A stretch of 64,000 nt of DNA from Bdellovibrionales bacterium (GTDB lineage Bacteria > Bdellovibrionota > Bdellovibrionia > Bdellovibrionales > JAUICD01): contig OZ241865.1 of assembly GCA_965203275.1 (NCBI GenBank), positions 1,152,001 to 1,216,000 on the forward strand. Direction: 5' to 3'. The translations under genes and the position numbers were made by a program. The stretch's first letter is position 1. Each line of letters opens with the position of its first letter. Under the pieces are notes generated by a model. The model searched no databases, had not been told where the DNA came from, and worked only from the letters and a program-made list of their open reading frames with translations. Positions 14,326-27,046 of this stretch are shown piece after piece.

Positions 14326-14621
14326 GGGGTTTGACTAATTTTACCTCTTGGGTATCTTTAAAAAAAAATCACTGGAAATTTTGAAACAATAAAGCTCCAC
14401 TTTTGCATTGCTTTGTACTTCTTAATTTTTATTTAAAGTTTGTGAACCACCTAAAAATTAGGGCTACCGTCACTTATGGTTATGATCATAGAAAGAACTG
14501 CAAGTCATAAATGCGGTCTATAAGTGTTGTATTGTTTCTATCGGCATCTATTGACAAAACTTTAATCTATGATAGTCTATATATAGCCTGTCTTCTGTTA
14601 TTGAATAACATGGCAGGGTTT

Positions 14622-14706
14622 TATTTCTACTTTGGTAGATAAGATGATTTGTAAATTTATAAGTTTTACATGCTCAAAGAGAGGCTAGCCAACTACCTCT
14701 TTTTTT
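14622..14706 (+). ncRNA. Solitary Cas12a-type crRNA-like unit 1 (handle, variable region, terminator)
   Basis: TATTTCTAC-TTTG-GTAGAT at 14622-14640, 35 nt, then the AAAGAGAGG...CCTCTTTTTTT hairpin/U-tract. TTGACA at 14551. Confidence 0.6.
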
Positions 14707-14761
14707 ATTTGTAAGGATATATGAATATAAGATATAAGGTTAATATGAAAAAGAGGACATT

Positions 14762-15295
14762 ATGAGTGATGATGATTTTCCAAGCAATGGACCTACAAAA
14801 GAAAATGGCAATCCTTTAAAAGAATACTTTAAAGGAATTTTACCTTTCTTGCTACTGATTCTGAAAGAAATCAAGTCTAACTGGCCTTTATATTCAATAA
14901 TTTTGTTTGTGTGTTTTATCTTTCCACCACAAGACTACGGTTCTATTTCAACCATTATAGGTATTCTCTATATTCTTTTTAATGTTAAACTTATAACTCC
15001 AATAAAAAGTGAGATAAAAGAAATTAAAAAAGATGTTGAGAATACTAATAATGAGATAAAAGAAATTAAAAAAGATGTTGAGAATACTAATAATGAGATA
15101 AAAGAAATTAAAAAAGATGTTGAGAATACTAATAATGAGATAAAAGAAATTAAAAAAAATGTTGAGGATACTAATAATGAAATAAAAGAATTAAAGAGTA
15201 GTATTGATAAAAAATTTGAAGATGTAAGTATTGCTATCAAAGAGATAAATAATAACGATAAGTTTAAAAACAAGACGAATTCAAGTGATAATTAA
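14762..15295 (+). CDS. Membrane-anchored coiled-coil protein with 42-bp tandem repeats
   Basis: Hydrophobic N-half, then about four copies of EIKEIKKDVENTNN. Confidence 0.75.
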   Translation: MSDDDFPSNGPTKENGNPLKEYFKGILPFLLLILKEIKSNWPLYSIILFVCFIFPPQDYGSISTIIGILYILFNVKLITPIKSEIKEIKKDVENTNNEIKEIKKDVENTNNEIKEIKKDVENTNNEIKEIKKNVEDTNNEIKELKSSIDKKFEDVSIAIKEINNNDKFKNKTNSSDN

Positions 15296-15477
15296 GATAA
15301 ACTTTCAAAGTCTTTTGTGGATATAATCATATCTTATTTAACACCATCAAAAACCCATCAGACCGCATGCTAAACCCATCAAAAACCCACTTTCACGATA
15401 TTTGACATACCTTAGTCTATTTGATATGATAATTGTAAGGTTTTGTAGAATTGGATTAATTTAACCAGGAGGTTATT

Positions 15478-15669
15478 ATGACTATGGAAGGAATGAGTAA
15501 CCAAATAGAAAGATTGAACATTGAGCTTAATTGTCTACAGAAGTTTAATGGTCACGCAAAGTTTAAAGCAAATGTAAATGATACACGCATAATAGCAAGA
15601 CAAGTGGAGCGTCGTCTTAATTTAATAAGAGAAATAGACGCGAACATGGAAGCAAACAAAGAGAAATAA
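15478..15669 (+). CDS. Small hypothetical protein
   Basis: Strong AGGAGG RBS; TTGACA...TATGAT-like elements upstream. Confidence 0.55.
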   Translation: MTMEGMSNQIERLNIELNCLQKFNGHAKFKANVNDTRIIARQVERRLNLIREIDANMEANKEK

Positions 15670-15934
15670 GGGGGGAGTCCCACAGAGGCGGGGGCATGAT
15701 CACGCGAGGGTGGTCTTTACTCCATCAGGGTTTTATACTTCCTAACTTTTAGCATACCCCGGTCATTTTCAGATAGTTAAAACCGCTCTAATTTGAATAT
15801 CAGGATGCTGAAATCTCAAAAAAACATCAAAAACCCTCATTTTCACGACGCTTGATAGACAAAAGTCTATCTTTTTTAAAGTTTTTGCTGTATACAACCG
15901 AAAAAATAATAAATGATAAAAAAACGGGGGTTTT

Positions 15935-16333
15935 ATGAATTTGGAAGATACACCAGTTAATGGCGATCCGTCAGGATATGAATCAATCTCACAAAATAAT
16001 ACGAAGAAATCTTTTTTGTCATTTTTTGATTCTGATATTGTAAAAGCTATAGCATTTCTTTTAGGAACCCTGGGCAGTCTTTTTTTGATTCTTTTATTTG
16101 GTGTCGTTAGCGTTTCAGGGAGTTTGTACTTTATCGGCAACTTGTTAAATGCTCCTATTAAAGATCAAATGAGTGCAATTAAAGTGCAAGTAAATAGTAT
16201 TGAACAAAAATTTGATAGCATTGAAGTAAAATTAAACAATATGGATAAACAAAACAAAGCTATCATAGAGGGGTTAAAAAGTCAGGGTATTCAAGTTAAA
16301 TATCAAACGGCCAAAGATGGTGAGACCCTTTAA
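15935..16333 (+). CDS. Small TM plus coiled-coil protein
   Basis: Long hydrophobic segment followed by heptad coiled coil (IKDQMSAIKVQVNSIEQKFDSIEVKLNNM). Confidence 0.7.
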   Translation: MNLEDTPVNGDPSGYESISQNNTKKSFLSFFDSDIVKAIAFLLGTLGSLFLILLFGVVSVSGSLYFIGNLLNAPIKDQMSAIKVQVNSIEQKFDSIEVKLNNMDKQNKAIIEGLKSQGIQVKYQTAKDGETL

Positions 16334-16344
16334 GGTTATAAGGA

Positions 16345-16373
16345 TTGAGTTTATCCAAAGAGGATGATATACT
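16345..16373 (+). promoter_or_regulatory. sigma70-type promoter for crRNA-like unit 2
   Basis: TTGAGT (16345-50), 17 bp, TATACT (16368-73). Predicted +1 is near 16380, the first A of AATTTCTAC. Confidence 0.6.
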
Positions 16374-25003: not shown

Positions 25004-25137
25004 ATTTTGACCATCCTCTTGATTATTTTAGCATTTTTTATTGTTATGTCTAGTATATCTTATTTTTTTGTTATTTTAAGCATATTAATATTTTAGTGCC
25101 TGTTTTCTGTATTGCCAGAATACCTTTTTCTTTAAAA

Positions 25138-25224
25138 TTTCACTCAAAATGCATCATGCCTCTGGCATGTTTTTGGGCGTTTGTCTCACTAAAAATAAAC
25201 CAGCCTCTGACCACTTTGAGTGAA
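25138..25224 (-). repeat. Fragments of the ~150-bp structured repeat family
   Basis: CACTCAAAATGCATCATGCCTCTGGCATG and CACTAAAAATAAACCAGCCTCTG ends. Confidence 0.75.
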
Positions 25225-25323
25225 TAAGGTAGGCTTTGACCTTGTCTCTTGAGTTTGTAAGCCAATAGTTTGCCTTGACGTTGATACTCTATAATAAGCT
25301 ACATATTGTTTGATATTTTCCAT
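25225..25323 (-). pseudogene. Serine resolvase 5' remnant (second copy)
   Basis: Reads MENIKQYVAYYRVSTSRQTIGLQTQET, nearly identical to 18336-18407; truncated at the repeat element. Confidence 0.85.
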
Positions 25324-25355
25324 CAAGTATATTTTTGATTTTTAACAATTGAATA

Positions 25356-26564
25356 TCAAGGTTTAGATTTCATAAAGTCTTTAAGTTTTTGTATTGGTAG
25401 TTCTATTATTGTCTTTATCTCATCCCCTTTGTCTTTGAGGGGTCCATCCTCCGTAATGAAGGCTTTTGAATAAACACATAATGGCAAAAATAAGTCATCA
25501 TTCCTTTGATTCTCTTTACTGTGAATAAAACTGCCATGGCTTACTTTATCTATATGCTCTTGTTTGAGATCATTATAATATCTTATAGATGCATACGTTT
25601 TTAAAAATGGATATTTAAATTCTTTTCTAATATCTCTGTCAAATTGTTCTTTTAGAGCGTCAATTTTTTGTTGAGAAAGACCATGAAATTCTTTATCCTG
25701 CCCTCCGATTTCTTTTTTTATATATTGTACCTTTTTTGATATATCACTTAATTTTTTTTGTGTCATGGTTGTTTTAAGTAGTTTTTCCATTTCTTCTATC
25801 GTAAGATTTGTGTTGAGCAAATCATCTTCTTTATTTTCTATAAGAGTTAATTGTATTAATTTTTTATATATAATCCATTCTAAATATACAAAATGAAAAT
25901 GAAAGTATTTGGCTTTGAGATGGTTATATCCATTTTCTTTAAAATCTTTGTATATTTCATCGTTTTTTTCTCTCTGTTTTTTTGTTTTAGAATATAACTT
26001 GTCTATATTCTCTTTTTTTTCTTCAGGAGAAACACCAAAGATATCTAGTATATCCTTAGAAGAGAACTTTGGATTTATTTTATTATCCAATTCAATTAAG
26101 CTTTCCCTAGAACGTTTTAGATCTTTTAAAAAAATATTCATGACATAATCTGAATAGACTGGAATGCTTTCTATAATCCCATCACCATCAATTTCTTTTT
26201 TTATAAAAAAGCGATTATCTGGTAAGAATTTTAATTGTATTTTTTCCATCATTTCTTTGATAATCTCTAATCTTTCTATGCTTGATTCTTCCTTCTTGCA
26301 TTTCAGGCCTGCTATTTCTGATAACACCTGATAGGCTATAAAGACTATACCACTGCTTTCTTTTACTTTCTTACAAAAAGGGTCCATTTGTTTTTGATCT
26401 TTTTGAAATACATTTATTATATTGGTATCTATTAAAATCATCTTTGAATTGCCCTCTTGATCTCTAAAATTTATATTCATTTTCCACTTCCTTTCTTTGT
26501 TAATTAATTGATTAAATAACTCTTTTAAAAGAAGATACAAACGAAGAAAGTTTAATTTTTTCAT
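25356..26564 (-). CDS. Hypothetical protein with PIN-like motifs (start may be 26480)
   Basis: MILIDTNII, QVLSEI, C-terminal NDDLFLP...FITED; very AT-rich. Confidence 0.55.
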   Translation of the reverse strand: MKKLNFLRLYLLLKELFNQLINKERKWKMNINFRDQEGNSKMILIDTNIINVFQKDQKQMDPFCKKVKESSGIVFIAYQVLSEIAGLKCKKEESSIERLEIIKEMMEKIQLKFLPDNRFFIKKEIDGDGIIESIPVYSDYVMNIFLKDLKRSRESLIELDNKINPKFSSKDILDIFGVSPEEKKENIDKLYSKTKKQREKNDEIYKDFKENGYNHLKAKYFHFHFVYLEWIIYKKLIQLTLIENKEDDLLNTNLTIEEMEKLLKTTMTQKKLSDISKKVQYIKKEIGGQDKEFHGLSQQKIDALKEQFDRDIRKEFKYPFLKTYASIRYYNDLKQEHIDKVSHGSFIHSKENQRNDDLFLPLCVYSKAFITEDGPLKDKGDEIKTIIELPIQKLKDFMKSKP

Positions 26565-26651
26565 ATCTTTCTATTAATATATCAGAGACTAGAATACCTA
26601 ATAAAATTTTTAGAAAATCACTATTCCAATTGTTTCTTAACACAACATATC

Positions 26652-26752
26652 AAAAGACAAAAGAGACCACAAGTGGCCTCTTTTGTCTAAATACATAGAA
26701 AAGATTTAGTGTCGTATCTACAGAAATTAATACATACCAACAGTAGAAATTA
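26652..26752 (-). ncRNA. Solitary Cas12a-type crRNA-like unit 3
   Basis: Minus strand: TAATTTCTAC-TGTTGGTATGTATTAATTTCT-GTAGAT, 27 nt, then AGACAAAAGAGGCCAC-TT-GTGGTCTCTTTTGTCT terminator. The ~40 nt upstream align without gaps to the unit 2 promoter. Confidence 0.6.
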
Positions 26753-26782
26753 AATATAGTATCTCATCTTATTCGGATAAAA

Positions 26783-27046
26783 TTAATCCTTAGGTTTCTT
26801 ATCCTGTTTGGTTAATTGATTCGATAGATGTTGTGCGAATAAGGTTACTATCTCTTTATAGTTTTTATTGTTTTCCTCTGACAATTTATCCACTTTATTC
26901 TCAATCTTACTGATTTTATTCTCAAGCTTACTGATTTGTGTCGGTAAATGATTAGATACTTGATAAATTAAATAAATAACTAAAGGAAAAATTATCGTGG
27001 AGCTATGTTCTAAAAACAAAGTATATAAGAGACTTGCTGTTGTCAT
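26783..27046 (-). CDS. Small TM plus coiled-coil protein (NHLPTQI motif)
   Basis: AAGGAGG RBS; TM then YQVSNHLPTQISKLENKISKIENK. Confidence 0.75.
   Translation of the reverse strand: MTTASLLYTLFLEHSSTIIFPLVIYLIYQVSNHLPTQISKLENKISKIENKVDKLSEENNKNYKEIVTLFAQHLSNQLTKQDKKPKD

Follow-up and report, generated by a model that had tools for sequence, protein, structure and literature searches.

Three solitary repeat units in the window

We analysed 64,000 nucleotides (nt) of a Bdellovibrionales bacterium, genome positions 1152001-1216000 on a single 2.57-Mb contig with 35% G+C (hereafter the window; positions refer to it unless marked "genome"). The window carries three small units, each built around a CRISPR-repeat-like handle. 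The motif ATTTCTAC-N(1-30)-GTAGAT, which lies within these handles, occurs there three times, at 14623-14640 (+), 16381-16398 (+) and 26716-26750 (-), against 0.03 expected; three or more occurrences were reached in none of 100 shuffles, and all three lie outside any array.

Unit 1 has the handle TTATTTCTACTTTGGTAGAT (14621..14640, +), which belongs to a divergent subfamily common to this unit and the one at genome 958666 (B958k) and forms a hairpin in the minimum-energy fold. It is followed by a 35-nt tail, or pseudo-spacer, without a match elsewhere (14641..14675, +) and by an intrinsic terminator recognised from sequence and fold (14676..14706, +). On its 3' side is an open reading frame (ORF) for a 177-aa protein with a transmembrane (TM) segment, coiled coil and tandem 14-aa repeats (14762..15295, +; DUF948 below cutoff, coiled-coil matches), starting 141 nt past the handle start and about 55 nt past the terminator.

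Unit 2 is preceded by a TM and coiled-coil ORF of 132 aa (15935..16333, +), whose stop lies 11 nt ahead of a predicted promoter, TTGAGT-17-TATACT with a TG (16345..16373, +); this ends 5 nt ahead of the handle, a position kept in the family. The handle is TAATTTCTACTGTTGTAGAT (16379..16398, +), and its last 19 nt, AATTTCTACTGTTGTAGAT, reproduce exactly the 3' part of the array repeat described below. There follow a unique spacer of about 30 nt for which no target was found (16399..16428, +), a degenerate second repeat without hairpin, ATCTAAAGATAGGGATTGACTTGTAAGTGGAT (16429..16460, +), which is present in the same form, alone, at five other genome sites, and the conserved tail ATGAAAACTAAAGTTTCCATGATTCCATATTAAAA with its terminator (16461..16518, +), identified by homology to other tails and by its fold.

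Unit 3 lies on the opposite strand. Its promoter-like block (26753..26790, -) overlaps the stop codon of an 87-aa TM and coiled-coil ORF with an NHLPTQI motif (26783..27046, -), and its handle (26716..26752, -) is split in the loop by a 17-nt insert (21 nt by another count) and, from sequence and fold, probably defective. The tail (26689..26715, -) is homologous to that of a unit at genome 2163444, and a terminator recognised by sequence and fold closes the unit (26650..26688, -). The TM-type ORFs end 46 nt ahead of unit 2 and 31 nt ahead of unit 3.

Both the handle hairpin and the terminator appear in the minimum-energy structures of unit 1, unit 2 and one short unit elsewhere in the genome (z-scores -2.0, -4.2 and -4.6, respectively), and the canonical hairpin is absent from the predicted fold of unit 3, with its 17-nt insert. 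None of the units matches Rfam, whose sole match in the window is a 5S rRNA gene (8070-8186, -).

Much of what a first-pass annotation of this DNA had described is borne out: all three units end in AAARAGAGG...CTCTTTT hairpins, units 2 and 3 have an upstream block of about 40 nt in common, and the small ORF adjoining each unit has one hydrophobic segment and a charged C-terminal part. Its statement that the middles of the units are unrelated holds only in part: some 65 nt at the 3' end of unit 2, comprising the degenerate repeat and the tail, have homologues among the tails of other units, and so has the tail of unit 3.

A genome-wide family of units

Across the genome the exact handle pattern occurs 19 times, 6 of them in the type V array and 13 elsewhere, against 2 for a reversed control. 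A profile of the upstream block plus handle (nhmmer) adds eight units with variant handles, at genome 264646, 437890, 1030155, 1412157, 1546813, 1915358, 1920928 and 2163444. Three exact matches (genome 1846944, 2186000 and 929280) were set aside; they lack the family features, fit the control rate and look like chance. The handle-bearing units total 20: 17 core units, the divergent pair of unit 1 and B958k, whose common stretch is only 34 nt (88% identical), and unit 3 with its interrupted handle. The first-pass annotation had proposed a scan for handles outside arrays and their neighbours, and it did uncover a recurring pattern: about 20 units, 12 of the 20 by TM/coiled-coil genes, and islands that bear resolvase genes.

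The typical unit consists of a predicted sigma-70-like promoter, a few bases, a handle of 19-20 nt, a tail of 20-37 nt and an intrinsic terminator. As the element has one 5-bp helix only, nhmmer profiles and pair counting were used instead of a covariance model. In 19 aligned units all 95 cells of the stem TCTAY/GTAGA pair; four of the pairs are invariant and the fifth is C-G in 14/19 and U-G in 5/19. GTAGAT and TCTA are invariant across the same alignment, and the loop takes nine forms (TGTT, TATT, TATC, TGTC, GGTC, CTTT, TTTG, TTTA and TATTT). Tails diverge down to chance-level identity while the handle stem stays. Upstream of most units lie a -35-like TTGAST, 17-18 nt and TATWCT. In DNA as AT-rich as this, predicted sites of this promoter type are no denser than background (19 found, 14.3 expected), and for this reason the argument for a promoter rests on its fixed position across the family; a profile made from the promoter block only has eight matches in the genome, which are its eight seed units, all with a handle.

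Twelve units are of a short form, whose tails of 17-37 nt are mutually homologous and drifting (for example AAAATTCATGATTCCATATC, AAAACTCATAATTGTTTG and AAATTCATAAGCTTAAAG) and lead into AAAAGAGGCC...GGYCTCTTTTTTT. Three are long (unit 2, C960k and I2428k) and carry a unique stretch of 21-32 nt and a degenerate repeat between handle and tail; of the array repeat, its 5' part is retained here (GGGATTGACTTATAA vs GGGACTTATAA), the hairpin is missing, and the degenerate repeat ends in GTGGAT. Another unit, A364k, has a second, truncated handle 43 nt past the first. The spacers of unit 2 (16399-16420) and C960k (genome 960087-960108) are partly reverse complementary (18/22); we rejected the idea that they target each other, as the pattern suggests that a short ancestral segment was inverted between AGAT/ATCT motifs.

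A search with tail and terminator only gave 20 matches at E<1e-4, with a handle at most 130 nt upstream in 15; by this profile 15/20, that is most units, have an intrinsic terminator. The other five matches are four hairpin-less copies and one unrelated sequence. At least five hairpin-less relatives exist in the genome, where the degenerate repeat of the unit 2 type stands alone behind TM/coiled-coil-type genes (genome 58786, 1762669, 2001541, 2242293 and 2421749). The unit itself can be the sole piece shared between two loci: only about 80 nt (handle, tail and terminator) are 90-95% identical between H1916k and M1920k, with flanks at chance level, and F1744k and G1884k are 95-100% identical in the unit vs 55-85% in the upstream gene. 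By eye, units A364k (genome 364055) and E1600k (genome 1600370) are cut by insertions of repeat elements. An abundant hairpin repeat of this lineage, similar to repetitive extragenic palindromes (REP-like), is inserted into CRISPR repeats and is what cuts these two units. The sequence features of the family support the view that the units are crRNA (CRISPR RNA) mimics derived from the genome's own type V repeat.

The type V locus and its effector

The type V cas locus (genome 238802-245700) encodes an effector of 1325 aa and is served by an array (genome 245305-245636) of six repeats, ATTGAAAGGGACTTATAAATTTCTACTGTTGTAGAT, with spacers of about 27 nt and a truncated seventh repeat; an insertion of the REP-like hairpin repeat truncates the last array repeat (genome 245680-245700). 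The effector has no match in NCBIfam and only a sub-threshold, Cas12f1-like TNB match in Pfam. It matches the PADLOC Cas12a models at 3.9e-171, and in a phmmer search of the PDB only Cas12a3 chains were found (1.2e-71 and 2e-58), with no Cas12a or Cas12a2 chain up to E=10 against all solved structures. Judged by sequence, the effector is Cas12a3-like, closer to Cas12a3 than to Cas12a or Cas12a2 and not told apart from Cas12a4, which is without a solved chain; the "Cas12a-linked" partner of the first-pass annotation is thus not a canonical Cas12a.

The catalytic motifs are intact (RuvC I GIDRG at 802, RuvC II LEDLD at 1043 and a RuvC III-like DPDKVAAYNIAKK), a CPYC/CQLC zinc ribbon is present, and, in the comparison for the tRNA-loading domain, the alignment to Ba1Cas12a3 is incomplete across Ba1 residues 855-960. 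From these features we infer that the protein may be active as a Cas12a3-type nuclease. As described in PMC12851939, Cas12a3 recognises target RNA with a purine-rich 3' flank and cleaves the CCA tails of tRNAs, which leads to growth arrest; it binds crRNA strongly (Kd about 0.2 nM), retains the residues for crRNA processing and, in the case of Ba1Cas12a3, is dead as the E1065A mutant. The adaptation genes cas1 and cas4 are, on their sequences, decayed: what is left of cas4 is 79 aa long and aligns to positions 2-70 of 178, and cas1, with the first ~100 residues missing, falls short of its cutoff. The cas2 gene is whole.

The genome has a second CRISPR-Cas locus outside the window, of type II-B (genome 2266389-2278442), with 24 repeats of GTTTCAGTAGGAAGGGTTTTGACTTATGCTTATGAAAG and genes for a 1475-aa Cas9/Csx12, cas4, cas2 and a short cas1 ORF. 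The third spacer there differs at only 2 of 22 positions from spacer 1 of the type V array, which implies that both arrays sampled the same invader; the match of spacer 1 at genome 2,266,566 (2 mismatches) is this spacer and was rejected as a self-target.

Islands, mobile elements and distribution

Units 1 and 2 lie in an island of about 14.0-19.3 kb, between the genes for a Na+/H+ exchanger and a glucose/sorbosone dehydrogenase, in the order unit 1, two TM/coiled-coil genes, unit 2, small hydrophobic ORFs, an ankyrin-repeat gene (17101..17823, +) and, at the right end, a serine-recombinase (resolvase) gene broken into two ORFs (18312..18885, +). As the first-pass annotation had noticed, the same remnant recurs near unit 3: 91 nt at 25225..25314 (-) are 93% identical to 18336-18426. 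A resolvase fragment is found within 6 kb in 7 of 15 unit loci, against 1.05 expected, and seven were reached in 0/5000 permutations. In a survey of 106 proteins from 13 other flanking regions, ankyrin genes were present in 8 of the regions, and transposases, HNH domains and pilin-like N_methyl genes in 3 regions each. The units are 19 kb to 2.2 Mb from the cas locus.

Two genes for an EH_Signature-domain protein and a SNF2-helicase/HNH protein (genome 954848-958575) end 88 nt ahead of the handle of B958k; we take this pair to be reminiscent of the ZorC/ZorD proteins of Zorya. In the window, three tandem ORFs of 58 aa with a period of 210 nt lie at 29616-30212 (-). The locus is present in contigs from sequencing runs of three studies, and in every run the summed contig depth rises 10- to 30-fold at 24908-25424 and at 17153-17669, the latter within the ankyrin gene, which points to multi-copy repeats.

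Among 400 other sampled genomes of the phylum, none has more than four non-array matches to the handle, compared with 19 outside the array here in the same scan; two of the 400 have arrays (16 and 26 matches). In the one congener, G001, the array runs to about 60 repeats with the TATT loop and is interrupted by REP-like hairpin insertions; the exact pattern finds no scattered handle there. The TATT-loop units match the array repeat of this congener and the TGTT-loop units that of the present genome; the flanking genes in G001 are about 75% identical and not syntenic here. Patterns specific to the module gave no match in viral contigs, nothing related in metagenome contigs (4 unrelated matches) and, in contigs of species-representative genomes, 3 unrelated matches, namely a small array and two other solitary handles.

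A membrane-protein gene family beside the units

We defined a TM/coiled-coil ORF as one hydrophobic segment (KD19 of at least 1.6) followed by a charged, repeat-rich C-terminal part. The stop of such an ORF lies on the same strand 12-51 nt ahead of the unit in 9/20 units, and three further units lie 89-141 nt upstream of one, so that 12/20 units are linked to these genes in all. The stop codon can fall inside the promoter block, as KD-stop in unit 3 and C960k and as NN-stop in F1744k and G1884k. The other eight units have different or no adjacent ORFs: genes for proteins of 312-330 aa, a carboxyltransferase, an SNF2-HNH gene and short non-TM ORFs.

The motif NH[LI][PS][TS][QEKR][IY] is present in 65 ORFs genome-wide, many of them in tandem runs of up to nine. 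The small proteins of this NH(L/I)P(T/S)QI family, encoded for example at genome 209338-212122 and 654134-659491, have an N-terminal TM segment and coiled-coil repeats. A handle follows within 150 nt in seven of the 65; had the units been placed behind genes at random, about 0.5 such cases would be expected (a rough calculation, 65 in about 2,400 genes). The link between units and TM/coiled-coil genes is real but one-sided.

Searches of Pfam, PHROGs and PADLOC gave these proteins only weak, coiled-coil-driven matches and no database family that fits; scores in Atlas were under 0.9, and a word-based search retrieved just one cluster, at 98% identity to the query, and nothing more distantly related. 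Weak leads point to proteins resembling holins, XhlA or BhlA.

Search for targets of the tails

Over the 535 nt that lead up to the effector start and cross it, no anchored seed match of at least 9 nt was found for any of the 20 tails, and the longest anchored match is 8 nt, without TTTV. The best 20-nt matches within 1.5 kb of either flank are at chance (lowest P 0.03, 0.05 and 0.06 among 20 tests), as are seed-anchored matches in 800-nt flanks (lowest P 0.05 and 0.07 among 20 tests), and antisense matches to the 65 TM/coiled-coil mRNAs are no better than those to control genes (lowest P 0.13). The partial, TTTV-flanked matches in cas or small-gene promoters that the first-pass annotation had proposed to look for were not found above chance. 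Genome-wide, at up to 3 mismatches in 22 nt, only paralogous units match the tails and spacers. Two long-unit spacers have no match at up to 3 mismatches in 40 relatives, and exact 20-21-mers of two unit spacers and of one array spacer have none among IMG/VR viral contigs.

The target match that defines CreR/Cracr RNAs and CreTA is absent from these units, and the CRISPR-regulated toxin-antitoxin proposed in the first-pass annotation fares poorly: besides the chance-level matches, no unit lies beside cas genes, 58/65 TM/coiled-coil genes have no handle and 8/20 units no such neighbour.

Interpretation

Our preferred reading, held tentatively and at a little short of an even chance, is that the units are competitor or decoy crRNAs, similar to the RNA anti-CRISPRs known as Racrs, on decayed mobile islands. 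A solitary repeat unit (SRU) of the Racr kind fits best because promoter, invariant handle, drifting tail and terminator occur together, no self target was found, the copies are many and the islands carry recombinases and transposases. Each unit would be a small independent gene with its own sigma-70-like promoter, and its transcripts would begin with the mature 5' handle or only a few bases away from it. The RNA would be loaded through the handle into the intact Cas12a3-like effector, and with a tail that has no match in the cell the complex would be inert, so that the units would titrate an abortive-infection nuclease. They may have been brought in on mobile islands with ankyrin, HNH, transposase and serine-recombinase genes, and have been stranded there as the islands decayed. 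The anatomy, copy number, pattern of conservation, lack of self targets and setting in islands are observed, and the role built on them is proposed.

Several points weigh against this reading. Transcription of the units and binding of their RNAs by the effector are predictions from sequence, and inhibition of a Cas12a3-type nuclease by decoys is proposed by analogy. Three to six units carry unique spacer-like inserts, for which a pure decoy has no need, and the strong link to one gene family (12/20 units) is left unexplained by a decoy role. The argument from handle conservation is tempered by a discovery that was partly conditioned on the handle, and the 5/20 handle-free finds show decay. As to the proposed mobile origin, there is no intact phage or plasmid around any unit, and none of the 106 neighbouring proteins belongs to phage capsid, terminase or tail families at E<=1e-5.

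The spacer-like inserts lead to an alternative that we regard as unlikely, namely that the units are stand-alone guide genes or mini-arrays, in which the long units would be solitary repeats that gained a spacer and would give the Cas12a3-like effector real guides against transcripts of outside invaders or of rival mobile elements. Unit 2, C960k and I2428k, with handle, unique stretch, degenerate repeat and tail, the second truncated handle of A364k and the similarity in length between the inserts and the array spacers agree with it, and the account of CracrVA1 indicates that a repeat, a spacer and a terminator suffice (10.1101/2024.10.29.618823). However, the 12 short units share one drifting ancestral tail and not independent spacers, no target was found in the genome, the 40 relatives or IMG/VR (two spacers in each of the latter two, as exact 20-21-mers in IMG/VR), and cas1 and cas4 are truncated.

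Somewhat less likely still is that the units are functionless relics, pieces left over from earlier arrays or from a single old module that were copied along with a highly duplicated gene family and island DNA. The genome is rich in repeats and decayed elements, hairpin-less copies exist, the handle of unit 3 is interrupted and A364k and E1600k are, by eye, cut by insertions. Against decay alone, the handle stem and its immediate flanks are invariant while identity in the tails and outer flanks drops to chance, the promoter keeps its position, and such scatter is found in 0/400 other genomes of the phylum, two of which have arrays.

The position of the units behind TM/coiled-coil genes raises the question of Cas-dependent control of the adjacent gene, in the manner of a CreTA-like safeguard or addiction device. 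The mRNA of that gene would read into the handle, where binding or processing by the effector would alter its stability, and loss or inhibition of the effector would release a holin-like toxin. The nine units 12-51 nt past a same-strand stop with no terminator between, the three upstream of such a gene, the stop codon within the conserved promoter block and the weak holin, XhlA and BhlA-like leads speak in its favour; yet the tails show no guide complementarity to flanks or TM/coiled-coil mRNAs, each unit has its own predicted promoter and none is beside cas genes, eight units and 58 family genes stand without the respective partner, and the toxicity of the small proteins is only putative. We judge this improbable. 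The same low standing applies to a bolder version, a new module of crRNA genes made of promoter, handle, tail and terminator, independent of arrays and processing and fused to the 3' end of a holin-like gene. Occupancy of the handle by the nuclease would set the fate of the mRNA, nuclease loss, blockade or activation would be coupled to membrane damage, and the long units would record spacer uptake outside arrays; if true, an RNA-targeting type V system would here be safeguarded by a protein toxin without the need for any guide-target match.

That the units are CreR/Cracr-type regulators guiding the effector to repress its own promoter is scarcely credible: the layout of pseudo-repeat, pseudo-spacer and terminator is the same, but the longest anchored match in the 535 nt around the effector start is the 8 nt without TTTV, the effector is of an RNA-targeting clade and no unit lies beside cas genes.

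Comparison with known systems

To our knowledge, the solitary repeat RNAs described so far occur one at a time, on phages and plasmids, and are aimed at DNA-cutting CRISPR systems. For the Cas12a3 clade, neither an RNA decoy nor a crRNA-like regulator was found in the literature searched, which did not extend to supplementary tables of SRUs and Cracrs. In CreTA, part of the pseudo-spacer of CreA is a match to the toxin promoter, and toxin and CreA lie together within the cas locus. The units resemble it as degenerate mini-CRISPRs adjoining a small gene, here a possible toxin gene, but neither the toxin-promoter match nor the position in the cas locus holds for them. Mini-CRISPR arrays occur on viruses and other mobile elements, and the long units are like these in having repeat, spacer and degenerate repeat without cas genes; they differ in that only 3-4/20 units are of this form, no target was found, and the second repeat has no hairpin (in A364k it is a truncated handle).

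With the type V-A CreR and CracrVA1 (10.1101/2024.10.29.618823; 10.1101/2023.03.10.532045) the units share one pseudo-repeat with a hairpin handle, a pseudo-spacer (about 21 nt there) and a rho-independent terminator. CracrVA1 is described as a working V-A crRNA-like RNA made of a single repeat, spacer and terminator (10.1101/2024.10.29.618823), and in both V-A CreR and CracrVA1 about 10 nt proximal to the protospacer-adjacent motif (PAM) match the cas12a promoter. Here, in contrast, 0/20 tails have such a match, and the units are scattered whereas CreR lies beside cas12a.

The closest parallel is with Racrs. Camara-Wilpert et al. (2023) describe three V-A Racrs (RacrVA1-3) that inhibit MbCas12a, viral SRUs directly downstream of a promoter, and one Racr that shares an operon with an acr gene, 11 nt downstream of it (PMC10651486). 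The units are likewise lone repeat mimics outside arrays, with a (predicted) promoter directly upstream, no cas neighbour and a conserved handle, and, like some Racrs, they can lie a few nt behind a small protein gene. They differ in number, about 20 copies in one bacterial chromosome instead of one on a phage or plasmid; in the partner, which is a Cas12a3-like, RNA-triggered tRNase in place of Cas12a, with inhibition proposed here by analogy; and in the recurrent link to a TM/coiled-coil gene and the copies with a spacer and degenerate second repeat. Of the two analogies drawn in the first-pass annotation, it is the one to Racrs that fits best, with the nuclease exchanged for a Cas12a3-like one.

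The units differ from the published systems in the clade of the partner nuclease, in their number within one chromosome, in the fixed junction with a family of membrane-protein genes and in the long forms that look like a solitary repeat that gained a spacer. About 20 units in one small chromosome would face a nuclease of the newly described Cas12a3 kind, and, if the decoy reading is true, they would provide a natural case of an abortive-infection CRISPR system being kept in check during the decay of its adaptation genes. Why the units are linked to a membrane-protein family of 65 members has yet to be explained and can be tested. Should the RNAs load the nuclease, they would be ready-made natural inhibitors, or compact self-transcribed guide genes, for tools of the Cas12a2/3 type.

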